NCBI GenBank assembly: GCA_033344735.1
Contig: JAWPMW010000001.1
Coordinates: 1,182,171 to 1,246,170, forward strand
From: Gammaproteobacteria bacterium
Lineage (GTDB): Bacteria > Pseudomonadota > Gammaproteobacteria > UBA4575
Length of the DNA stretch: 64,000 nt
Reading direction: 5' to 3'
Each line of letters opens with the position of its first letter. The first letter of the stretch is position 1. This document shows positions 50,192-61,528 of this stretch, piece by piece. A model generated the notes under the pieces. It saw only the letters and a program-made list of their open reading frames with translations. It did not search any database and was not told the DNA's origin. The position numbers and the translations under genes are program-made.

Positions 50192-50866
50192 ATGAAACGT
50201 TTAAAATCTCTAACACAGCAGCTTGGTTATTCATCAACTGCAAGTTATTTGATCTCTACAATGTTAGAAAAATTATTTGGGATCGAAATGCATCATTATC
50301 GATTTTATTCTCAGCCGGTTTATAAAACGCCAAGGGTTCCCACACACAAGCTTAATCGCTACAAATTTAGCTGGCTGAATAAACCAGAAAAAATTCTTGA
50401 TGAATTACAGCGCCCAAAACAAGTGATAGAAAATCGCTTTCAACAAGGCTCTGTCTGCCTGGTTGCAGAACAAAATGGCAAACTTCAAGGGTGCTTATGG
50501 TTAATAAAATCCAAGTACATAGAAGATCAAGTGCGAGCAACATATCATTTCCCTGAAAACGCCGTCTGGGATTACGATGTCTATGTCACACCCAAGAAAC
50601 GCTTTACCATTTTATTTGCCGCACTCTGGGATACCGCAGACACCTGGATGAAAGAACATAATTATGCAAGCAGCCTTAGCAGAATATCCGTAGAAAACGC
50701 TCCATCTATTCGCTCACACGAAACAGCTGGCGCAAAGCAAATTGGATGGATAATTGCAATAGTCATCAAGCATTGGCAAATTACTCTCTCGGACAAATCA
50801 CCAAAACTACATTTCTCCTCAAAAAACAACACTAACGGCCCAGATCTATATTTCACCAAGATTTGA
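50192..50866 (+). CDS. Hypothetical protein, possible GNAT-fold acyltransferase
   Basis: 224 aa, first gene after the core block. There is weak GNAT-like secondary-structure periodicity and no canonical Q/RxxGxG/A motif was found by eye. Family assignment is tentative. Confidence 0.35.
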   Translation: MKRLKSLTQQLGYSSTASYLISTMLEKLFGIEMHHYRFYSQPVYKTPRVPTHKLNRYKFSWLNKPEKILDELQRPKQVIENRFQQGSVCLVAEQNGKLQGCLWLIKSKYIEDQVRATYHFPENAVWDYDVYVTPKKRFTILFAALWDTADTWMKEHNYASSLSRISVENAPSIRSHETAGAKQIGWIIAIVIKHWQITLSDKSPKLHFSSKNNTNGPDLYFTKI

Positions 50867-52464: not shown

Positions 52465-54057
52465 ATGAATTTCCTACTACATTCAGCGCTTTTCAATCAG
52501 GCAATACACCGCCCTGATTCTATCGCCATAGAATACAAACAAGAAAAGATTAGCTACAGGGAGCTAAGCATGCTTGCTTCAGACTTTGCTGGAGGTTACT
52601 CCAATTTGGACTTACCAAAAGGCAGCAGAGTTGGAATTTTTTTAGCTAAACAAGTAGAAACAATTTCTGCCATCTTTGGCACTTTATTAGCGGGCGGCAG
52701 CATCGTCCCTGTCAACCCCATACTAAAAGCCAATCAAATTGAACACATTCTTTGTGATTGTGACGTCAGCATACTTGTCACAACTAAATCTCGTCTTAGA
52801 CAGATTGAAGGTGTAATAGACAATTGTCCAGCACTAAAAACAATAGTCCTAGTTGATCATGATGACTTAATTGATTCCCGCTCTTACCACAAACCTATTT
52901 CGAGCTGGCAAAATTTCTGCCAACAATACAATTCTGAAAAAGCACCAACCATTATTGAATCAGACCTTGCTGCAATTTTTTACACATCGGGTAGCACTGG
53001 AAAACCCAAAGGCGTGGTACTAACACATCACAATATGCATGTTGGCGCACAAAGTGTCGCGCAATATCAGAACAACAATAAACAAGATAGAATTCTAGCA
53101 GTCTTACCTTTTAGCTTTGACTATGGATTTAGTCAAATCACAACGGCCATAGTATCTGGAGCGACGGTTATATTATTAGATTACCTACTACCGAAAGATG
53201 TGATTAAAACTCTTGAGCGTACTAAAGCCACAGGATTAGCCGGCGTGCCTCCTTTATGGATGCAAATCACAAAGCTAGATTGGCCAAACAGCATTAAAGA
53301 TCATTTACGTTACATCACCAACTCTGGCGGAGCAATGCCACAAAGTACTTTATCCATTTTGCAAGAAAAACTGCCAAATACTGACATATATTTAATGTAT
53401 GGCTTAACCGAAGCATTTCGCTCAACATATTTACCGCCTGATCAAGTCAATACTCGCCCTACTTCTATGGGAAAAGCGATACCCAATGCAGAAATATTTG
53501 TTATTAACTCTGAAGGCGAAGAATGCAAGGCTGGCGAAGAAGGTGAATTAGTTCACCGCGGCCCATTAGTTGCACAGGGTTATTGGAATGACCCAGAAAA
53601 AACTTCTGAGCGTTACAAGCCGCTACCATCATCTCTATGTGATGGGCGCACAGTAACAGAACTTGCAGTATGGTCCGGAGATTCTGTTAAGAAAGATGAA
53701 GAAGGTTATCTATATTTTGTTAGCCGTACAGATGAAATGATTAAAACATCTGGCTACCGAGTGAGCCCTACAGAGATTGAAGAGACTCTTTTACTCCTCG
53801 ATAATGTCAGTGAAGCTGTCGCAATGGGTATACCTCACTCAGAACTAGGACAAGCTATTGTAGTCGTAGCCACTAGCAATTCAAAAAGCACAGATTTGGT
53901 AAAAGAAATTACTTCTTCACTCAAAAAACAATTACCACCCTACATGCTGCCACAGAAAATATTCATCCGTGACGAGTTACCTCGCAATGCCAATGGTAAA
54001 TTTGATCGCAAACAGATGTATATCGAATGTGAAAACACGTTTAGCAAATCACAATGA
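52465..54057 (+). CDS. AMP-forming acyl-CoA/acyl-ACP ligase (adenylate-forming enzyme)
   Basis: 530 aa with adenylation core motifs YTSGSTGKPKGV, YGLTEA, GEL...RGP...GY, SGD...DEEGY...R.DE.IKTSGYRVSPTEIE and PRNANGKFDRK. Confidence 0.8.
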   Translation: MNFLLHSALFNQAIHRPDSIAIEYKQEKISYRELSMLASDFAGGYSNLDLPKGSRVGIFLAKQVETISAIFGTLLAGGSIVPVNPILKANQIEHILCDCDVSILVTTKSRLRQIEGVIDNCPALKTIVLVDHDDLIDSRSYHKPISSWQNFCQQYNSEKAPTIIESDLAAIFYTSGSTGKPKGVVLTHHNMHVGAQSVAQYQNNNKQDRILAVLPFSFDYGFSQITTAIVSGATVILLDYLLPKDVIKTLERTKATGLAGVPPLWMQITKLDWPNSIKDHLRYITNSGGAMPQSTLSILQEKLPNTDIYLMYGLTEAFRSTYLPPDQVNTRPTSMGKAIPNAEIFVINSEGEECKAGEEGELVHRGPLVAQGYWNDPEKTSERYKPLPSSLCDGRTVTELAVWSGDSVKKDEEGYLYFVSRTDEMIKTSGYRVSPTEIEETLLLLDNVSEAVAMGIPHSELGQAIVVVATSNSKSTDLVKEITSSLKKQLPPYMLPQKIFIRDELPRNANGKFDRKQMYIECENTFSKSQ

Positions 54058-55289
54058 TTAAAAAAACATTAGAACATCATTCTCCTCTAAACTTCTACAC
54101 TGTAGAAGATCATTGCTTAGTGATAGGAAATCAGAAATTCACTAATATATTGTCACAACATAAAGATGTCCCTGCTTACATCTATGACAGTTCAGTAATC
54201 AAACAGAAAATAGACTCCCTTCGAAAAGTTCTACCTGAATCCATGCATATTCATTATGCAATCAAAGCTAATCCAATGCCTGATGTTGTTAACTATGTAC
54301 AAGGTTTGGTAGAAGGATTGGATGTTGCCTCCGGCTTAGAATTAAAAGTCGCATTAGCTAGCGGCATGGACCCTAAAGAAATTAGCTTTGCCGGCCCCGG
54401 TAAAAGCATTGAAGAATTAACGCTCGCAATTAATAGCGGCATTACAATCAATTTAGAATCAGAAACCGAACTAGATCGCGCTACCATAATTGGCGAGCAA
54501 TTAGGCATAACACCACGCGTTGCTCTTCGCATTAATCCTGATTTTGAACTAAAAACATCAGGCATGAAAATGTCTGGAGGGCCTAAGCAGTTTGGTGTCG
54601 ACGCTGAAATCGCCACGGATATTATTAAAAAAATTCTCGACTATAAATTAGAATTCATAGGGCTTCATATCTTCAGCGGTTCACAAAATTTAAAATATGA
54701 AGCATTAATTGAAGCACAGACAAAGACATTTGCATTAGCCTCAAATCTAGCAGAACAGTCTGGCACAGAATTTTCCAAACTAAACATTGGTGGAGGTTTT
54801 GGTATTCCATATTTCCCAGGTGAAAAGCCACTACCTTTAGAACCAATTGGTGAGAACCTGCATTCTTTACTCGAACAATACGCAAGCCAATTTGGTAACA
54901 CATCAATAATCACAGAGCTGGGACGTTTTATAGTAGGAGAATCAGGCGTATACATATCCAAAGTTATAGATAAGAAAGTTTCACGTGGAAGTACTTTCTT
55001 AATTATCAATGGTGGCTTACATCACCATTTAGCAGCCAGTGGTAATTTTGGGCAAGTTATCCGCAAAAATTATCCTGTGACTGTTGCAAATAAAATTGGC
55101 TTAGAGACAGAAAAGGCTAGCGCTGTTGGCCCACTATGCACACCACTCGATGTCCTAGCACAGGATATGGAATTACCCAAAGCTGAAATAGGTGATTATG
55201 TGGCAGTATTTATCTCAGGCGCATACGGATATACATCCAGCCCGTTAAATTTCTTAAGTCATCCTCATCCGATTGAGATTTTTATTTAG
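54054..55289 (+). CDS. PLP-dependent decarboxylase, Orn/DAP/Arg decarboxylase (fold III) family
   Basis: 411 aa with HYAIKANP (PLP lysine), NIGGGFGIPY, ELGRFIVGESG and GPLCTPLD motifs. Its start overlaps the ligase stop (ATGA). Confidence 0.8.
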   Translation: MIKKTLEHHSPLNFYTVEDHCLVIGNQKFTNILSQHKDVPAYIYDSSVIKQKIDSLRKVLPESMHIHYAIKANPMPDVVNYVQGLVEGLDVASGLELKVALASGMDPKEISFAGPGKSIEELTLAINSGITINLESETELDRATIIGEQLGITPRVALRINPDFELKTSGMKMSGGPKQFGVDAEIATDIIKKILDYKLEFIGLHIFSGSQNLKYEALIEAQTKTFALASNLAEQSGTEFSKLNIGGGFGIPYFPGEKPLPLEPIGENLHSLLEQYASQFGNTSIITELGRFIVGESGVYISKVIDKKVSRGSTFLIINGGLHHHLAASGNFGQVIRKNYPVTVANKIGLETEKASAVGPLCTPLDVLAQDMELPKAEIGDYVAVFISGAYGYTSSPLNFLSHPHPIEIFI

Positions 55290-56164
55290 GAATTTACGAA
55301 ATTTAAAGTAATCTGCTCAACTTCAGATCTTAATTTCCGAGAAGAAAATGTGTGGTCTGCCTCATCTATATAGTGGATAACTGTTTTTGATCTATTAAAT
55401 TCATCAAGCAGCCAATCATTTTCATCTAGCATTTGCTTAAATTCATCAGCAACTAAATCTTTACCACTAAGAATCAAGCAAATAGACCCATTAAAATTTG
55501 ACATTCCTCTAAACACTGCTTCTGCAATATTTTCTTCTCTATCGGCAATAGGTATTACCTGATGCGCATCAAATTTTGATTTGTTGGACCTGCTACTTAA
55601 GATCTTAAAAACTATATTACCCAAAGAAAATATCGCTTTTGATATCTTACTTGGCGACAATAATAATTGCTTCCATACTTCGATGCTAAACAAGCGCTCG
55701 CGATAGTAACTATGCAGAATGGCTTTAGAGTGACTCGTCTCACTCCTAACCCATGGATTCAATAATACAACACCTTTAATGCGATCATCAGTGTAGGCAG
55801 TAAATGAAATTGCAGCGGCGGCATCACACAACCCCCATAGATAAACTTCATCTAAATTACACTCATGATTAAAAACAAAATCTATTGCCACTTTGACATC
55901 ATCATCAATTTCATAGAACTGTTTAGAGATTCCCTGACTATAGCCCATGCCAGTATAATCAAACCTGAGCGCTAAAATTCCTTGTGCAGCTAAGCATCTT
56001 GCCAAAAGTGCAAATTGTCGATGACTGCCAACTCTATACTGAGGACCACCCACAACAATAATAACTGCAGCCTTTGCTTCTACTTCAGGAACCGATAAGA
56101 TGCCATATAGATCGCGCCCATTCATCGAAAAGCTTACTGGTTTTTCGAAATAACTCTGACTCAT
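55286..56164 (-). CDS. Alpha/beta-hydrolase-fold protein 1 (dienelactone-hydrolase-like)
   Basis: 292 aa with an IIVVGGPQY...FDYTGMGYSQG region and the candidate nucleophile elbow LWGLCDAAA. Its stop overlaps the decarboxylase stop convergently by 3 nt. Confidence 0.65.
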   Translation of the reverse strand: MSQSYFEKPVSFSMNGRDLYGILSVPEVEAKAAVIIVVGGPQYRVGSHRQFALLARCLAAQGILALRFDYTGMGYSQGISKQFYEIDDDVKVAIDFVFNHECNLDEVYLWGLCDAAAAISFTAYTDDRIKGVVLLNPWVRSETSHSKAILHSYYRERLFSIEVWKQLLLSPSKISKAIFSLGNIVFKILSSRSNKSKFDAHQVIPIADREENIAEAVFRGMSNFNGSICLILSGKDLVADEFKQMLDENDWLLDEFNRSKTVIHYIDEADHTFSSRKLRSEVEQITLNFVNS

Positions 56165-57003
56165 TACGCAAACACCCGCTTAGTTTCGCGCAACAATATC
56201 GGCGATATCGTGACTTCTTGTTGCATCCAAAATTTAACATCATTTACTGCATGCAAAGACAATTTTGCTAATAAATGCTCGTCGAGTTTAGACTTTGACA
56301 AACATATTGGTAACTGTGTTTTAGTGCCGTTTATAGATTTGCCAGTCGTCATCCAGTGCAGATCAGTTAAGGAAAGCACAGCTTGTATATAATCGTTAAT
56401 GTTTTTTGATTTGATTGTATTGAGCAACTCCGATGAAATATGATAACCACCTACCTCTAAAAAGCCAGATCCCTCTATTTCTTCCAAGACCTCTTTAGTA
56501 GTAATTTTTTTCAAATCTCCGGCCATTGCGGCTGCAATTTTCATGCGAATTAATTGTCGAACTAATGCTTCCCCGTTATCAACGGGATCCCACAAAACAC
56601 ATTTATTGATTTGAATATCTGATTGCTCAATCAAATTAAGAGAAATTAACGCACTATCACGCAAGCACACTAAGCTAATTTTTGAAGCAAATTTTTCAGA
56701 TAATTTATAAATATCAAGTAGATTATTTTTCCAAGCATCATAATTAAACTCCCCCCATTCTCCTGAACTGTCGCCAGTGCCTGCAAAATCAAAGCATATT
56801 GAATGGATGCCTGCATCTGCTAATAAACGCGCGCATAGTACATACATTCTTTTTGAACGATTCATTTCCTCGGCAAAGGGAGGCACAAATATGACAACCT
56901 GGGCGTCCCGCACAGCTGCACTTTGCTCGAATGGAGCATAGTGCGCTAAGAATATTTGGGAATTTTGACTTGAAGGAAGGAATTGGAAATCAGTTGTGTG
57001 CAA
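56164..57003 (-). CDS. Alpha/beta-hydrolase-fold protein 2
   Basis: 279 aa paralogous in architecture to the upstream gene (VIFVPPF...FDFAGTGDSSG...LVCLRDSAL). It shares 1 nt with the start/stop of the adjacent gene. Confidence 0.6.
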   Translation of the reverse strand: MHTTDFQFLPSSQNSQIFLAHYAPFEQSAAVRDAQVVIFVPPFAEEMNRSKRMYVLCARLLADAGIHSICFDFAGTGDSSGEWGEFNYDAWKNNLLDIYKLSEKFASKISLVCLRDSALISLNLIEQSDIQINKCVLWDPVDNGEALVRQLIRMKIAAAMAGDLKKITTKEVLEEIEGSGFLEVGGYHISSELLNTIKSKNINDYIQAVLSLTDLHWMTTGKSINGTKTQLPICLSKSKLDEHLLAKLSLHAVNDVKFWMQQEVTISPILLRETKRVFA

Positions 57004-57005
57004 CC

Positions 57006-57257
57006 TTAGTTTTCCATTTTTGCGACTATTTGATTTCGCAGTGTTCCTACTGTTTCGAACACTTCAGCATCTAATTCATCATCATCAAAGACAATGCCGA
57101 AGCGATCTTCTATTGAGGTAATAATGCCAACTATTGCCATGGAATCTAACTCAGGAATGGCTCCAAGTAATGGCGCCTCTTCACTCATTTGATGTATCTG
57201 AGCGGCACCATCTAGCGATTCTGCCAACACATCTAGCACTTGTTCTAGTTCAACCAT
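57006..57257 (-). CDS. Acyl carrier protein
   Basis: 83 aa acidic four-helix protein with a phosphopantetheine-attachment motif (LGAIPELDSMAIVGI). It lies 2 nt upstream of hydrolase 2. Confidence 0.7.
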   Translation of the reverse strand: MVELEQVLDVLAESLDGAAQIHQMSEEAPLLGAIPELDSMAIVGIITSIEDRFGIVFDDDELDAEVFETVGTLRNQIVAKMEN

Positions 57258-57282: not shown

Positions 57283-57969
57283 TTAATTTGCTATGTTTTG
57301 AGAAACAGTCTTATCCCAAACACCTTTTCTAATCAATTTATTTTTCAATCCAGGCAAAGGATACCCTAGCTCATAAGCTCTATGCCCATGCTTAACCGCC
57401 ATACTTAAATGATTAGTATCCACATAATATAATCCAAAATTATAATGAGCCTCAGCTGAATCTGGATTTATCTCGAGCGCCTTTTGGTATTGCATTTTCG
57501 CCTTACCAAGACTTCCCTTACGATGAAGATAAGTTGCGTATATTAAACGCACAATACCATCATTTGGTTTGAAAACTATAGCACGATTAAAGAAACATTC
57601 TACAGAAATTGAATCACCCATTTTTTCAATTGCATTTTCAACCTGAAACTCATACTTAGATATTGAAGTTAACGCTCTATGATGATTTGGGAACACTCTT
57701 AACACATACTCCAAGTCACCATAAACACTACTAGTCTTACCTTTAACCAAAGACTCAACATCAGTATCAAAGTGGTGATACTCAACTAAATAGCCATGTT
57801 CCTTATAAACATTATAGTCAGTATAATCAAATGGCCCATGGTGGTTATCTAGACTTCCACATGCTCCTCCACCCAAACCTTGCTCCTCATTTGCAACCGC
57901 AGATTGCAAATAAAATAGTGCAACCAATAACACTAAGATAGTAGAAGTGTACTTATATTTCATTGCCAA
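57283..57969 (-). CDS. Secreted His-rich protein with C-terminal TPR repeats
   Basis: 228 aa with a signal peptide (…LQSAVA|NEE). Histidine-rich middle region (HHGPFDY, EYHHFD, FPNHHRA). TPR-like helices at AKMQYQKALEINPDSAEAHYNFGLYY. No family recognised. Confidence 0.5.
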   Translation of the reverse strand: MAMKYKYTSTILVLLVALFYLQSAVANEEQGLGGGACGSLDNHHGPFDYTDYNVYKEHGYLVEYHHFDTDVESLVKGKTSSVYGDLEYVLRVFPNHHRALTSISKYEFQVENAIEKMGDSISVECFFNRAIVFKPNDGIVRLIYATYLHRKGSLGKAKMQYQKALEINPDSAEAHYNFGLYYVDTNHLSMAVKHGHRAYELGYPLPGLKNKLIRKGVWDKTVSQNIAN

Positions 57970-58303
57970 GCCTCTTTTAAACTGTTGTTTCGCAATTATA
58001 AAGCTTTAAGCCACTCCGTTCATCGACCTAGGCCCTAGCTTAAGCATTTATAGCGTGAATTCCATCAAATTATCAGCAAAAATGACGCTATTACACAGCC
58101 AATCAATTCACTGATTATTTATATTTAATATTCACTGGCAATCTAACAAACATGGCCCCATACAATCTAATAATGTGTCACACTTCAGACAAATTCCACT
58201 AACAGAACTCAAGCTTTCAGGGACCGCCTCTTTCTCTCTAATCATCATATATTAGAATAGACTCAGCAATTTATCGTTCAACTTAATCGCATAAAATTAC
58301 TAG

Positions 58304-60136
58304 ATGAAACAATTTATCTTTACTGGATGGACTGTCAACAATGCTGATCAGGACTCTAAATTATTAGGCCATCTTGACAATTCTGAAAACAAAATTTCTC
58401 AGTCAAAAATAGATCAGTGGAATCACTCAGCTGCCTGGACATCCCCTAGCGAGCTAGTAATCCACCACAAATTTGATGACATTACCCTCAGCTTATGTGG
58501 CAGACCTACGATTAGCATTAACGATGATGGATCATTTCAAACCATAAAAACTGAACATCAACTAAATGGGCTGGTACAAGAATACAAGAAACATGGATAT
58601 CATTTTCTCAGAAAACTAAATGGTAGTTTCTCATTAATTTTATTCGATGCACGCAAACATATAACTATATTAGCTGTCGATCGCATGGGCATAGAGCAAA
58701 TGCATTATGCGACTATTTCTGGTGGTTTATTTTTTAGTAGCTCTCTAAAATCTTTAAGCAATTTACCAAGCATTCCTAAAAATATTTTTCCGCAATCTGT
58801 TTACAATTATTTTTACTTTCACTGTATTCCAAGTCCCAATACTATTTTCCAGGATTTATACAAGTTAAAGCCTGCCGAGGTATTGATCTTTAAAAATGGA
58901 TCAAGCTCTAAAGATACATACTGGACACCGGAATTTAATGAAAAACTCTCAACATCTGTAGACACTCTCCAATCTGATGTAAGAGAATCATTAGACTCAA
59001 CAATGCGAGAATTATCTGCAGATCCTAAGACAGGAGCATTCTTAAGCGGTGGTACAGATAGTTCTACACTCTCTGGGTTATTAAAAAAACATCACCCTAC
59101 AGACGCACCTGCTTTCTCTATTGGCTTTGAAGAACAAGGTTATGACGAAATGGGATTCGCTGATATAGCGGTCAATAAATTTCAAAACAAGCATTATAAG
59201 TATTATGTCAATTTTGACGATGTCCTAAAGCTATTCAACGAAATACCTAAAATATACGAAGAGCCTTTTGGAAACTCATCAGTCGTTCCAACATTTGCTG
59301 CTGCACAATTAGCAAAGAAAAATGGTGTTGACCATATGATTGGTGGCGATGGTGGTGATGAAATTTTTGGCGGTAACGATCGCTATGCCACACAAAAATT
59401 ATTTAACATTTATAGCTCTGTACCAAAATGGGTGCGCGAAATCATTCTTGAACCAAGCTTTTGCAATTCAGTCGCAGGCTCATTACCCATCGCTAAGAAA
59501 GCAAAGAGCTATATTGAACAAGCAAAAATTTCTATGCCTAAACGTATGCAAACATACAATATATTGCATATGCAGCAACCCAGTTCGATATTCGACAGCC
59601 ATTATCTTGGAGAAATTAATAGCAATTACCCCATAGATTTATTAAGTGAAACTTACAACGAAATACAGGATGCTTCACTATTAAATAAAATGTTGTACTT
59701 AGACTGGAAATTTACCCTGGCTGATAATGACTTGCGTAAAGTAAATACCATGTGTCGTGCAGCTGGCGTCGAAGTTTCATATCCGTTTTTAGATAATCGA
59801 GTTGTGGAAAGCTCGACAAAAGTGCCTTCCAAACTTAAGATCAAAGGAATGAGATTACGCGCATTCTACAAAGACACTTACAGTTCCTTACTACCTCCAG
59901 AAATAATCACTAAATCCAAGCACGGGTTTGGCTTGCCATTTGGAGTATGGCTGAAGAAAGATAGCCGCTTACAAAATGAAGTCTATGGCGCACTAACAAA
60001 TCTAAAAACAAGATCTATGTTTCAAGATAAATTCATTGATGATTTAATTGAAAAGCACCGCTCTGAACACGCGGCTTATTATGGAACATTTGTCTGGGTC
60101 TTAGCAGTGCTAGAGCGCTGGTTAGACGCTCAATAA
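58304..60136 (+). CDS. Asparagine synthetase-family amide synthetase lacking the N-terminal catalytic Cys
   Basis: 610 aa with the PP-loop SGGTDSS and an AsnB synthetase domain. A degenerate glutaminase-like N-domain is present, but the protein starts MKQF (no Cys2), and an in-frame TAG lies immediately 5' of the ATG. Confidence 0.8.
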   Translation: MKQFIFTGWTVNNADQDSKLLGHLDNSENKISQSKIDQWNHSAAWTSPSELVIHHKFDDITLSLCGRPTISINDDGSFQTIKTEHQLNGLVQEYKKHGYHFLRKLNGSFSLILFDARKHITILAVDRMGIEQMHYATISGGLFFSSSLKSLSNLPSIPKNIFPQSVYNYFYFHCIPSPNTIFQDLYKLKPAEVLIFKNGSSSKDTYWTPEFNEKLSTSVDTLQSDVRESLDSTMRELSADPKTGAFLSGGTDSSTLSGLLKKHHPTDAPAFSIGFEEQGYDEMGFADIAVNKFQNKHYKYYVNFDDVLKLFNEIPKIYEEPFGNSSVVPTFAAAQLAKKNGVDHMIGGDGGDEIFGGNDRYATQKLFNIYSSVPKWVREIILEPSFCNSVAGSLPIAKKAKSYIEQAKISMPKRMQTYNILHMQQPSSIFDSHYLGEINSNYPIDLLSETYNEIQDASLLNKMLYLDWKFTLADNDLRKVNTMCRAAGVEVSYPFLDNRVVESSTKVPSKLKIKGMRLRAFYKDTYSSLLPPEIITKSKHGFGLPFGVWLKKDSRLQNEVYGALTNLKTRSMFQDKFIDDLIEKHRSEHAAYYGTFVWVLAVLERWLDAQ

Positions 60137-60217
60137 TTCTTACACTCTTCTATTTTAAACGCCATAATTAGCTTTAAGTAAACTTTAGCTACAATGGCAA
60201 TACTCGAATTAAAGCAA

Positions 60218-61528
60218 CTATTTAGTTATCGCCATATTCATAGCAGGCAACATTTTACCGCCTGAATTTACAGGCAACTCAGTTTCTTGCATTCGCCGCT
60301 TGTGGAGCAACGTCGACATGGCTATACCGATACCTATCAGTGCGTACAGCAAATCAAACTTTGCCATCTCCAAGAACAACCCGGCAACCATATAACCAAC
60401 GATACTTACTTGAATCATCGCGGCCAAATCTCGCATCCAAATCATATCCTCATATTTAGGCGCAGTTTTTATGATATATCCCATAGTGCGATATAAAACT
60501 ATCAGTAACATTGTGAAGATAATAAGCCCCACCCATCCATGCTCACCCAATGACTCAAAATAAATACTATGCGGGCCAGCCCATTGCACTTCAGGTCTCT
60601 CAGAGTACTTATTAAATAACTCCTCTGTAAAAGTACTATAGCCACCGCCAAATATAGGATAATCATTAGCAAGATTGATTGAAAACTCCCAAGCATTAAT
60701 TCTCATCATTGCTGATTCATCTTCTTGATAGTTTTTAATCGTATCCATTCGATCATGCCAACTCTGTGGCATAAATACAAAGAGCAATGGTGCAAGAATA
60801 ATAACAACTGCTGCCACTTTAAACTTTGCTTTGCTTTTCATAACTAAGAAACCAGTCATTGCTATCAATGCTAGGAACCCACCTCTTGATTGGGTACCCA
60901 AAATCGCAAACGCAGTCAATATCATCAGCATCAGCGACGAATGCCTAAATAGTTTCTTTTCTGCCTGCGTATGTAGATACCACATCAATGGAAGCACCAT
61001 TACTAGTGCAAGACTAAGTGCATTGTTATCAGCGATAAAAGATTCTGAAGGACCCCAAACACGGAAAGCCCCAGCATTCACAAGGGTGAATATACCTCCC
61101 TTGAGACCAAAATAACCTAAAGAAAGTGCAATTGTTGCAACCAAGGCATTAACTTTATTTTTATCACTTACCATAAATATCATTAACGCAACCATAGTAA
61201 TAATCTTTAAAAAGTTAACCCATTGCGCCATAGCCTCTTCTGGATAAATTGCCATGCTTGTAGTAATGGAAACCCATCCGGCATATAAAATCAGCATCCA
61301 CAGTAGCCCGGAACCTTTAGGCATGATTTTATCTTTATAATATAGAAAGGCAATTATCGTAATTAGGCCAATCATTTTTGAAAATGGGAAATCATACGCA
61401 AACCCAAAACAAAGTCTGTGAGGATTCATAAAACCCAACCAACTCCATACTAAAATGCCCACATAAGGTCTGAACAAAATGAATGGAATGAAACCAAAAA
61501 CGATTAAAGTTAGCAGTATATCTCGCAT
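60218..61528 (-). CDS. Wzy/O-antigen-ligase-like polytopic membrane protein
   Basis: 436 aa with ~10-12 hydrophobic helices and a larger periplasmic loop, the architecture of the O-antigen ligase/polymerase (Wzy_C) family. Confidence 0.6.
   Translation of the reverse strand: MRDILLTLIVFGFIPFILFRPYVGILVWSWLGFMNPHRLCFGFAYDFPFSKMIGLITIIAFLYYKDKIMPKGSGLLWMLILYAGWVSITTSMAIYPEEAMAQWVNFLKIITMVALMIFMVSDKNKVNALVATIALSLGYFGLKGGIFTLVNAGAFRVWGPSESFIADNNALSLALVMVLPLMWYLHTQAEKKLFRHSSLMLMILTAFAILGTQSRGGFLALIAMTGFLVMKSKAKFKVAAVVIILAPLLFVFMPQSWHDRMDTIKNYQEDESAMMRINAWEFSINLANDYPIFGGGYSTFTEELFNKYSERPEVQWAGPHSIYFESLGEHGWVGLIIFTMLLIVLYRTMGYIIKTAPKYEDMIWMRDLAAMIQVSIVGYMVAGLFLEMAKFDLLYALIGIGIAMSTLLHKRRMQETELPVNSGGKMLPAMNMAITK

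Follow-up and report, generated by a model that had tools for sequence, protein, structure and literature searches.

Background

Among environmental and wastewater bacteria, exosortase (PEP-CTERM/XrtA) systems are common, and flocs and biofilms do not form without them. Floc-forming bacteria have been described as having "two asparagine synthetase genes" (PMC9012009), and PEP-CTERM loci have been explicitly compared with the T9SS linking-sugar pathway (PMC7468200). TIGR03108 (XrtA/PEP-CTERM system amidotransferase, eps_aminotran_1) is the best-scoring curated family for the AsnB-like protein analyzed here, with which it shares its length class, a "long" synthetase domain with an insertion after GDGGDE, and its type of locus. 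Members of TIGR03108 keep an MCGI start and the HRGPD, HRRLSIID, NGE and D-T-E motifs, whereas the family to which our query belongs is without them. The genes of this AsnB-like family are not mentioned in Haft 2006, and no paper characterizing it was found in the open-access literature.

An AsnB-like gene in an XrtA-type exopolysaccharide locus

The gene lies in a stretch of 64,000 nucleotides (the window), with the following neighbors:

52465..54057, plus strand: TIGR03098 "acyl-CoA ligase, exosortase A-associated"; NRPS adenylation-domain-like, FSFDYG motif
54054..55289, plus strand: TIGR03099 PLP-dependent decarboxylase, diaminopimelate-decarboxylase-like, exosortase A-associated
55286..56164, minus strand: TIGR03100 hydrolase 1 (alpha/beta), exosortase A-associated
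56164..57003, minus strand: hydrolase 2-like alpha/beta hydrolase; TIGR03101 score 167 bits, below the cutoff of 202.75
57006..57257, minus strand: carrier protein, PP-binding, with a DSM serine motif
57283..57969, minus strand: TPR protein, divergent from the AsnB-like gene
60218..61528, minus strand: TIGR03097 O-antigen-ligase-like protein, exosortase A-associated, convergent with the AsnB-like gene

A TIGR04063 glycosyltransferase is also encoded in the window and, with the TIGR03097, TIGR03098, TIGR03099 and TIGR03100 neighbors, marks an exopolysaccharide locus of the XrtA type around the query. The window ends inside this locus, and xrtA was not found within the window. Gene order is unchanged in relatives of 70–82% identity. 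The decarboxylase stands where the initial annotation had placed it, 3.0 kb upstream of the AsnB-like gene. Since the ligase is NRPS A-domain-like and has an Asp235-type FD motif, the cassette is predicted to handle an amino acid.

The AsnB-like gene and its parts are as follows:

58301..58303, plus strand: TAG in frame, abutting the ATG, which excludes an upstream MCG start
58304..60136, plus strand: AsnB-superfamily paralogue without a glutaminase site; complete ORF, 610 aa
58304..58543, plus strand: residues 1-80, rapidly evolving vestige of the glutaminase half-site (K2 for Cys1, C65-G66-R67 for N74-G75-E76)
58544..58918, plus strand: residues 81-205, conserved Ntn-type N-domain core; Q86 for Asp98
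58919..60133, plus strand: residues 206-610, synthetase (ATP pyrophosphatase) domain
59045..59065, plus strand: PP-loop S248-G-G-T-D252-S-S254, aligned to AsnB SGGLDSS
59348..59362, plus strand: D349-G-G-D352-E353, aligned to AsnB E348-G-S-D351-E352 (catalytic acid, Mg/ATP site)
59918..59920, plus strand: K539, aligned to AsnB Lys449

The encoded protein begins MKQFIFTGW. As the initial annotation held, the TAG at 58301-58303 is in the same frame, directly 5' of the ATG, and no MC start can be recovered. Translation of all three frames of the 334-bp intergenic region upstream yielded no GATase-like MCG exon; the sole "MC" (MCHTSDKFH*, 10 codons) is unrelated, and a hidden MCG start was rejected since nothing homologous is encoded there. 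Because 25 homologues of 64–94% identity begin at the same position, with the pattern M-x4-5-[T/S/A/I]-G-W, the start is correct and a frameshift unnecessary. No Shine-Dalgarno-like sequence is evident ahead of the ATG. Scans of positions 57900-60350 gave sigma-70-like promoter counts not above those of shuffled sequences and found no terminator, and a search by eye for a sigma-54 motif in the intergenic region was negative.

Loss of the glutaminase site and retention of the synthetase site

The N-domains of the AsnB-like family align with those of canonical paralogues from end to end (hhalign, probability 99.8%), which places K2 opposite the catalytic Cys1, the residue that the initial annotation had reported missing. 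The same alignment, in E. coli AsnB numbering, reveals that the RRLSI strand with Arg49 is deleted in the family and that in the query Asn74-Gly75-Glu76 is replaced by Cys65-Gly66-Arg67, and Asp98 by Gln86. Of the Arg, Asn and Gly oxyanion residues, Gly75 alone is kept; its equivalent, G66, is the sole conserved residue of the glutaminase site (77/77 family members), and the other glutamine-binding and oxyanion columns vary across the family. The true counterpart of Gly75 sits in L-C65-G66-R67-P. The residual "NG motif" described in the initial annotation was mis-assigned: L-N106-G107-S-F aligns with L-Q-G-M-F of AsnB and not with the oxyanion Asn74-Gly75. The proposal that glutamine is not used is, in turn, strongly supported, as Cys1, the Arg49 strand, Asn74, Glu76 and Asp98 are replaced or deleted family-wide. 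What persists of the N-domain is its core, residues 81-205, with the motifs L-N-G107-S-F and D126-R-M-G129 and a YFH-x-IPSP linker motif; the GATase_7 Pfam match is confined to residues 89-152.

The synthetase domain and its SGGTDSS PP-loop are intact, as had been claimed. Pfam PF00733 (Asn_synthase) covers residues 226-607 (E 2.9e-69), and FLSGGTDSS occupies residues 246-254, with S248, G249, G250, D252, S253 and S254 invariant in 77 family members. Equally invariant in the 77 sequences, which span ~40% identity, are D349, D352 and E353; K539, inside a K-H-G-F-G-L-P-F-G motif, is invariant in the family as well. An AlphaFold (AF2) model of the query (pLDDT 93.1, pTM 0.92) has the full two-domain AsnB fold, and its best Foldseek matches are TsnB9, AsnB, human ASNS, beta-lactam synthetase and carbapenam synthetase. 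With the synthetase machinery intact, carboxylate adenylation is therefore the expected chemistry.

A distinct family of Cys-less paralogues

The query belongs to a distinct Cys-less AsnB paralogue family present in at least 583 species-level genomes and is not an isolated, degenerate copy. Its nearest genome relative, a gammaproteobacterial MAG, shows 73% identity. Not one of the top 120 homologues has an MC start, and the Cys-less state is conserved; residue 2 is T, S, N, K, A, P, I or D, never C, with Thr or Ser in 35/67 collinear members. The residue before the G-W pair is T or S in most members of the query's clade, where A and I also occur; over the family as a whole, F, I, L, A and Y are found there too. 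A Cys directly before G-W (position 5, M-x-G-x-C-G-W) is found in 29/101 database members and 36/55 genome members; this position-5 Cys, present in ~30–65% of the family, is conserved in beta-proteobacteria. Among distant family members, identity is 0.19 over residues 1-80 versus 0.47–0.61 in C-domain segments and is highest in the C-terminal segment; the canonical paralogues have identities of 0.66 and 0.67 in the two N-domain halves. Judging from these values, constraint on residues 1-80 is relaxed in the AsnB-like family.

Against TIGR03108, the query scores 291.8 bits (cutoff 816.9) and aligns over profile positions 95-626 only, and other family members score 280–377 bits, aligned only from approximately position 95. 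Two co-located canonical paralogues tested with the same profile reached 1080–1089 bits over positions 1-627. Membership of the query in TIGR03108 was rejected, score and profile coverage both falling short. Canonical TIGR03108 paralogues (MCGI…HRGPD…NGE) lie within 10 kb of the AsnB-like gene in 12 related loci, and 12/12 keep all six glutaminase positions; in syntenic relatives, no canonical gene was found within 10 kb downstream. The query also remains below the TIGR01536 cutoff (236.2 versus 267.1 bits). Some family members exceed it and carry the name "glutamine-hydrolyzing" and, because Cys-less proteins pass under this label, the glutaminase-dead family exposes a systematic mis-annotation.

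Linkage to the exosortase A-associated cassette

In comparisons that covered 10-kb flanks, the AsnB-like gene is recurrently linked to an XrtA-associated cassette composed of the NRPS-like ligase, the PLP decarboxylase, the carrier protein and two hydrolases. Ligase, decarboxylase and AsnB-like gene are contiguous and co-directional in ~20 loci, from Nitrosospira, Massilia, Pseudoduganella, Duganella and others, and in many β-proteobacteria the AsnB-like gene is directly 3' of the decarboxylase. The operon of hydrolases and carrier protein is divergent from the AsnB-like gene in ~12 loci, and all six genes are co-directional in two Porticoccaceae-type loci (L035 and L081). Adjacency to the cassette holds in ~60% of the long loci anchored on the family and is not universal. 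The linkage was found again with the decarboxylase as anchor, the AsnB-like gene being within 10 kb in ~11/30 long loci (~37%). Elsewhere, the AsnB-like gene neighbors a DltB-like MBOAT, PrsR, CysNC or an acyl-CoA dehydrogenase-like gene. The connection to the decarboxylase that the initial annotation had drawn thus receives real support from synteny, as a frequent, not a universal, association; its interpretation as a whole is partly supported, in the absence of glutamine use and in this connection, and the NG assignment is not.

Proposed function and alternatives

From these observations we infer the catalytic activity of the AsnB-like protein, its substrates and its nucleophile. The protein is probably an ATP-dependent, carboxylate-adenylating amide synthetase that does not use glutamine and acts in the XrtA exopolysaccharide pathway. 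In this reading, the Ntn glutaminase site is dismantled and the ATP-pyrophosphatase site still works within a preserved two-domain fold; a substrate carboxylate would be activated as an acyl-adenylate and then captured by a nitrogen nucleophile with a source other than glutamine hydrolyzed by the protein itself. Because of the physical linkage between the gene and the conserved cassette, the amide bond would be formed in the pathway of that cassette, and the family would be an accessory component of XrtA/PEP-CTERM exopolysaccharide loci. Most likely, a carboxylate of a sugar, or of the amino-acid-derived intermediate of the cassette, would be joined to an amine that the cassette produces or carries; a plain carboxamide formed from free NH3 appears less likely. 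A more speculative and, in our estimate, doubtful extension is that the cassette and the AsnB-like enzyme build an amine-terminated side group, attached to the exopolysaccharide or to a carrier, in which an amino-acid-derived diamine is amide-linked to a sugar carboxylate and the free amine serves as the PEP-CTERM acceptor of XrtA. Such a group would resemble the linking sugar, modified with an amino acid, of type IX secretion cargo and, if real, would be the long-sought attachment point of exosortase XrtA for PEP-CTERM proteins.

Among the alternatives, an ammonia-dependent amidotransferase would convert an adenylated carboxylate (e.g., of a uronic acid or an amino-acid side chain) to a primary carboxamide, using either free NH3 or NH3 supplied by another protein with glutaminase activity. 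AsnB Cys1 mutants retain NH3-dependent activity, and simple ammonia use is therefore a live alternative, albeit one that we consider rather unlikely. The loss of the glutaminase site beside an intact synthetase site fits it, as does the fact that the nearest curated family, TIGR03108, is an amidotransferase; in the T9SS linking-sugar pathway to which PEP-CTERM loci have been likened, an AsnB homologue is proposed to form a glucuronamide (PMC7468200). The canonical paralogues within 10 kb in 12 loci, two of which were scored and exceed the TIGR03108 cutoff, are a possible source of NH3, but next to a working glutamine-dependent enzyme a second one for plain amidation would be redundant. To our knowledge, moreover, the naturally Cys-less AsnB homologues that have been characterized (beta-lactam synthetase, carbapenam synthetase and the lasso cyclases) all use a substrate amine and not NH3, which argues against ammonia here, and an organic amine is favored by the close operon association with an amino-acid ligase and with a decarboxylase that generates an amine.

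It is very improbable that glutamine is used via another N-terminal nucleophile, either a processed Thr/Ser (T7 in the query's clade, Thr2/Ser2 elsewhere) or the position-5 Cys after propeptide removal, in the way that loss of a short propeptide exposes the N-terminal Cys of B. subtilis PurF. The frequencies of Thr/Ser at residue 2 and of Cys before G-W given above, and the prevalence of T/S before G-W in the query's clade, speak for such a nucleophile. Both candidate positions, however, vary freely, with A and I even in that clade; the position-5 Cys falls opposite canonical Val5 rather than Cys1 (hhalign); and Arg49, Asn74, Glu76 and Asp98 are missing whatever the candidate residue. The propeptide model for the M-x-G-x-C-G-W members was rejected, the profile alignment being collinear from Met1 and the other glutaminase residues missing, and so was Thr/Ser as an Ntn nucleophile, the candidate positions varying to A, I, K, N and P. 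The decay of one active site could also point to a non-catalytic pseudo-enzyme that serves the exopolysaccharide machinery purely as a scaffold or regulator, but few parts of the protein are as well conserved as the synthetase site (77 sequences show no variation at the PP-loop, D349, D352, E353 or K539), and this explanation, too, is very unlikely. The lack of an evident Shine-Dalgarno-like sequence is the one feature in line with an artefact, a frameshift or wrong start hiding a normal MCG N-terminus, an explanation already refuted: the TAG abuts the ATG, the upstream frames hold no MCG-type exon, independent assemblies encode the same N-terminus, and the loss reaches four further internal positions.

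A glutamine-independent amide synthetase would set apart two chemically different steps in these pathways, glutamine-dependent amidation and glutamine-independent amide ligation, and would offer a concrete, assayable way into the chemistry of the cassette. One of the "two asparagine synthetase genes" of floc-forming bacteria (PMC9012009) is probably of the glutaminase-dead type.

Comparison with known systems

E. coli AsnB (PDB 1CT9) and human ASNS have the same two-domain fold as the query (Foldseek TM 0.56–0.70). The PP-loop, E348/D351/E352 and K449 of AsnB have equivalents in the query, whereas its Cys1, Arg49, Asn74, Glu76 and Asp98 do not, and a C-domain region of ~80–100 residues in the query (roughly 382-460) is without a counterpart in AsnB. 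Among solved structures, the TsnB9 hydroxyamidotransferase (PDB 7YLZ) is the best match both in sequence (E 2.8e-21) and in structure (TM 0.69/0.73) and is likewise of the "long AsnB" subclass, with the sequence alignment limited to query residues 80-280. TsnB9 keeps a working N-terminal nucleophile, and its donor is glutamate-derived.

With the Cys-less AsnB amide synthetases, the query shares the two-domain fold, the missing nucleophile and the retained adenylation site. Beta-lactam synthetase (1JGT) and carbapenam synthetase (1Q15), which naturally lack Cys1 and have a vestigial N-domain, are clear structural matches, and they catalyze acyl-adenylation followed by amide formation with a substrate amine. 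Identity to the query in the structural alignments is 12–14%, with no family match at the sequence level, and these enzymes are encoded in antibiotic clusters whereas the query is in a polysaccharide locus. The lasso-peptide isopeptide-forming cyclases are likewise Cys-less AsnB homologues, in which an adenylated carboxylate is captured by a substrate amine; the query matches their HMM NF033535 weakly (114.4 bits, cutoff 525), scores 55.2 bits on NF033561 (cutoff 300), and has no lasso precursor or protease genes near it. Finally, the uronamide-forming AsnB homologues of the WbpS / PGN_1234 type occur in O-antigen and T9SS linking-sugar loci, accompanied by a FemAB-like protein and by a deacetylase. 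Where PEP-CTERM loci have been compared with this pathway (PMC7468200), the counterparts that were named match TIGR03108, the glutamine-dependent type, whereas the query family is its Cys-less paralogue.

Locus and start codon of the AsnB-like gene

Housekeeping genes are followed, at about 50 kb, by an XrtA/PEP-CTERM-type exopolysaccharide locus that fills the rest of the window. Its order is GNAT-like ORF, WecB, TIGR03098 ligase, TIGR03099 PLP decarboxylase, hydrolase 1 (TIGR03100), hydrolase 2-like protein, carrier protein, TPR protein, AsnB-like gene, TIGR03097 O-ligase-like protein, polysaccharide deacetylase and TIGR04063 glycosyltransferase. Relatives of 70–82% identity share this order and further on encode a second glycosyltransferase, a FemAB-like protein, a DUF3473 deacetylase, and chain-length and tyrosine-kinase proteins. 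The features treated individually are:

50192-50866, + strand, GNAT-like ORF, 224 residues
52465-54057, + strand, TIGR03098 ligase ('acyl-CoA ligase')
56164-57003, - strand, hydrolase 2-like protein (TIGR03101, 167 bits, below the cutoff of 202.75)
58301-58303, in-frame TAG abutting the ATG of the AsnB-like ORF
58304-60136, + strand, AsnB-like ORF, 610 residues, N-terminus MKQFIFTGW

The initial annotation read this last ORF as starting MKQFIFTGW directly behind an in-frame TAG, with no recoverable MC start, and translation agrees. All three frames are closed in the 334 bp that separate the gene from the divergent TPR gene, none of them encodes anything resembling a GATase N-terminus, and no frameshift that would restore an MCG start was found there. 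Since proteins of 64–94% identity from independent assemblies share the start as well, an assembly or start-codon artefact is rejected. The intergenic region (57970–58303), between the TPR–carrier protein–hydrolase operon and the AsnB-like gene, is AT-rich and divergent, and neither a convincing promoter (sigma-70 or sigma-54) nor a convincing Shine-Dalgarno sequence could be recognised within it. RpoN/PrsR regulation has been reported for PEP-CTERM loci.

A decayed glutaminase site beside an intact synthetase site

Pfam assigns Asn_synthase to residues 226–607 (E 2.9e-69) and matches only the distal third of the GATase domain (residues 89–152). A single-sequence profile comparison pairs the query with E. 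coli AsnB from residue 81 onwards only (AsnB residue 94), and NCBIfam TIGR03108 aligns no earlier than profile position 95. Using hhalign with a profile built from canonical paralogues of related loci (TIGR03108-type, MCGI start), the N-domain was aligned end to end (query 1–211, canonical 1–228, probability 99.8%). M1 is paired with M1 and K2 faces the catalytic cysteine, the RRLSI strand bearing Arg49 is deleted, C65-G66-R67 occupies the place of Asn74-Gly75-Glu76, and Q86 that of Asp98; an independent MAFFT alignment gave the same mapping. Alignment with the canonical homologues thus confirms the suspected loss of Cys1 and adds that of Arg49, Asn74, Glu76 and Asp98, with Gly75 kept. The residual "NG motif" noted initially is not the oxyanion hole: N106-G107 corresponds to L-Q-G-M-F of AsnB. 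Gly75 is the sole conserved glutaminase position (77/77 family members), the others being variable, whereas all six residues are kept in 12 of 12 canonical paralogues. Among distant family members, identity is 0.19 over residues 1–80, 0.38 over 81–205 and 0.47–0.61 in C-domain segments, while the two N-domain halves of the canonical paralogues are equally conserved (0.66 and 0.67). Judged from these sequences, the fast-evolving residues 1–80 bear the marks of an active site that decayed while the fold was retained.

Conservation within the protein is highest in the synthetase site, and the motif initially recorded as intact is so in all 77 aligned family members. The PP-loop reads FLSGGTDSS (residues 246–254); S248, G249, G250, D252, S253 and S254 are invariant, as are D349, D352 and E353 (aligned with AsnB E348, D351 and E352) and K539 (AsnB K449). 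From the 77-sequence alignment, AlphaFold2 gave a model of high confidence along its whole length (mean pLDDT 93.1, pTM 0.92), with a beta-alpha-beta N-domain whose first strand comprises residues 6–11. With this model as query, Foldseek recovered the full-length AsnB architecture from the PDB (TsnB9, TM 0.69/0.73; also E. coli AsnB, human ASNS, beta-lactam synthetase and carbapenam synthetase), and the N-domain alone matched the Ntn domains of PurF and GlmS.

A widespread family, misnamed in part

The best 120 homologues measure about 600–630 residues, except one truncated entry of 342, and a survey of them for the Cys-less state found no MC start (0/120). Of the 101 full-length members, 67 have an N-terminus that runs collinear with canonical M-C-G-I-x-G-I, as M-[T/S/N/K/A]-G-[I/L]-x-G-W, residue 2 never being Cys; the query's clade has two extra N-terminal residues. 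Many beta-proteobacterial members (e.g. L019, L021, L036–L039, L055; L-numbers are loci of the family scan) start M-S-G-L-C-G-W, with a well-conserved Cys5 that aligns with canonical Val5 in the first beta-strand, adjoining the former active site. A species-level scan (one genome per species) with the family-specific peptides GFGLPFGxW and [DE]EPFGNSS[AV] confirmed at least 583 loci, in Nitrosospira, Nitrosomonas, Nitrotoga, Thioalkalivibrio, Ectothiorhodospira, Massilia, Pseudoduganella, Duganella, Noviherbaspirillum, Methylomonas, Porticoccaceae, Steroidobacteraceae and others. The query belongs to a large, uncharacterised family of glutaminase-dead AsnB paralogues specific to exosortase-type polysaccharide loci.

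In 12 of these at least 583 loci a second AsnB gene lies within 10 kb, with an MCGI(T/V/A)GI start followed by HRGPD, HRRLSIID and NGE. Two of the 12 match the full TIGR03108 profile at 1080.6 and 1089.3 bits (cutoff 816.9), while family members score 280–377. Because the scores differ and both genes occur together, the two are, by sequence, distinct paralogues co-existing in the same loci. Some family members are publicly named 'asparagine synthase (glutamine-hydrolyzing)' because they just pass the TIGR01536 cutoff (one database protein, P0053, at 269.1 against 267.1), yet they lack Cys1, Arg49, Asn74 and Asp98; on their sequences, this naming is a systematic mis-annotation, which the present finding corrects.

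Linkage to the XrtA-associated cassette

Three arrangements recur around the family gene in loci with 10-kb flanks: ligase–decarboxylase–AsnB-like, contiguous and co-directional (e.g. L012, L019, L021, L023, L036–L039, L047, L048, L063–L065, L069, L082); a hydrolase 1–hydrolase 2–carrier protein operon divergent from it (e.g. L013–L016, L024, L025, L027, L040, L045, L072, L079); and all six genes co-directional (L035, L081). In a reciprocal scan anchored on the decarboxylase, the ligase–decarboxylase pair was nearly invariant. Of 30 long contigs, about 11 had the AsnB-like gene directly next or no more than 10 kb away, which makes the link strong and recurrent, not obligatory. Neighbours of family genes without the cassette include a DltB-like MBOAT (Nitrotoga), the PEP-CTERM regulator PrsR with CysNC, and an acyl-CoA-dehydrogenase-like gene. 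In Nitrotoga (L018, 11940–13496) and a related genome (L043, 11902–13458) a 518-aa ORF directly follows the family gene, that of L018 being the DltB-like MBOAT (TIGR04091, 177 bits). By analogy with D-alanylation, such a neighbour hints that a carrier-protein-borne group may be passed across the membrane.

In the window, the ligase stop and decarboxylase start overlap by 4 bases (54054–54057) and the two hydrolase coding regions by 1 base (56164), which suggests translational coupling inside the two operons; the convergent 3' ends of decarboxylase and hydrolase 1 also overlap by 4 bases (55286–55289). The hydrolase 2 homologue is the most divergent cassette protein between loci (23–33% identity). 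The GNAT-like ORF scores below threshold on PF00583 (20.1 bits, cutoff 20.7) and had no NCBIfam match. Because many unrelated loci (L008, L014, L072, L099, L115, L126, L135, L147, L149) have a homologue of it adjoining the cassette of ligase and carrier protein, it may be an unrecognised cassette member, and a relation to the N-acyl amino acid synthases that are reportedly linked to PEP-CTERM loci is conceivable.

Predicted chemistry and relation to known systems

The TIGR03098 ligase most resembles NRPS adenylation domains (LgrA, 263.8 bits); the Asp of its FSFDYG motif is the Asp235 equivalent, and in such domains this residue binds the alpha-amino group. The protein is thus probably an amino acid:carrier-protein ligase, and the cassette most likely charges the carrier protein with an amino acid. 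The ligase's specificity code, read by eye, is D-Y-S-L-I-N-M-R-S-K, in which Arg at position 330 may point to an acidic or dicarboxylic amino acid.

With the glutaminase site dismantled and the adenylation site intact, the initial proposal of a synthetase that probably does not use glutamine holds. AsnB-superfamily enzymes activate a carboxylate with ATP, and a nitrogen nucleophile attacks the acyl-adenylate; the family enzyme should do likewise, forming an acyl-adenylate that should then be attacked by such a nucleophile. That nucleophile might be NH3. We know of no naturally Cys-less member of the superfamily that uses NH3, however; in beta-lactam synthetase, carbapenam synthetase and the lasso cyclases it is a substrate amine, and the operon ties of the family gene, to an amino-acid ligase and a decarboxylase, speak for an amine derived from an amino acid. 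On these precedents and this linkage, amide ligation with an organic amine is favoured, with slightly better than even confidence, and NH3-dependent amidation appears rather unlikely. The enzymology of the family is so far predictable in outline only, and the family makes a workable starting point for study of the XrtA cassette's chemistry.

The conserved cluster for floc formation in Zoogloea and Aquincola has been described as containing 'two asparagine synthetase genes' (PMC9012009), and two further papers cite asnB and asnH as genes that floc formation requires or involves in Zoogloea and Pseudoduganella (PMC7662799; PMC13453990). Veith et al. set the T9SS linking-sugar pathway beside PEP-CTERM loci (FemAB-like protein, deacetylase, TIGR03108 AsnB) and speculated that the exosortase acceptor is an amino-acid-modified sugar (PMC7468200). 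In none of these four papers is the Cys-less paralogue told apart. The family is a predicted further variant of the known kind of Cys-less amide synthetases of AsnB fold.
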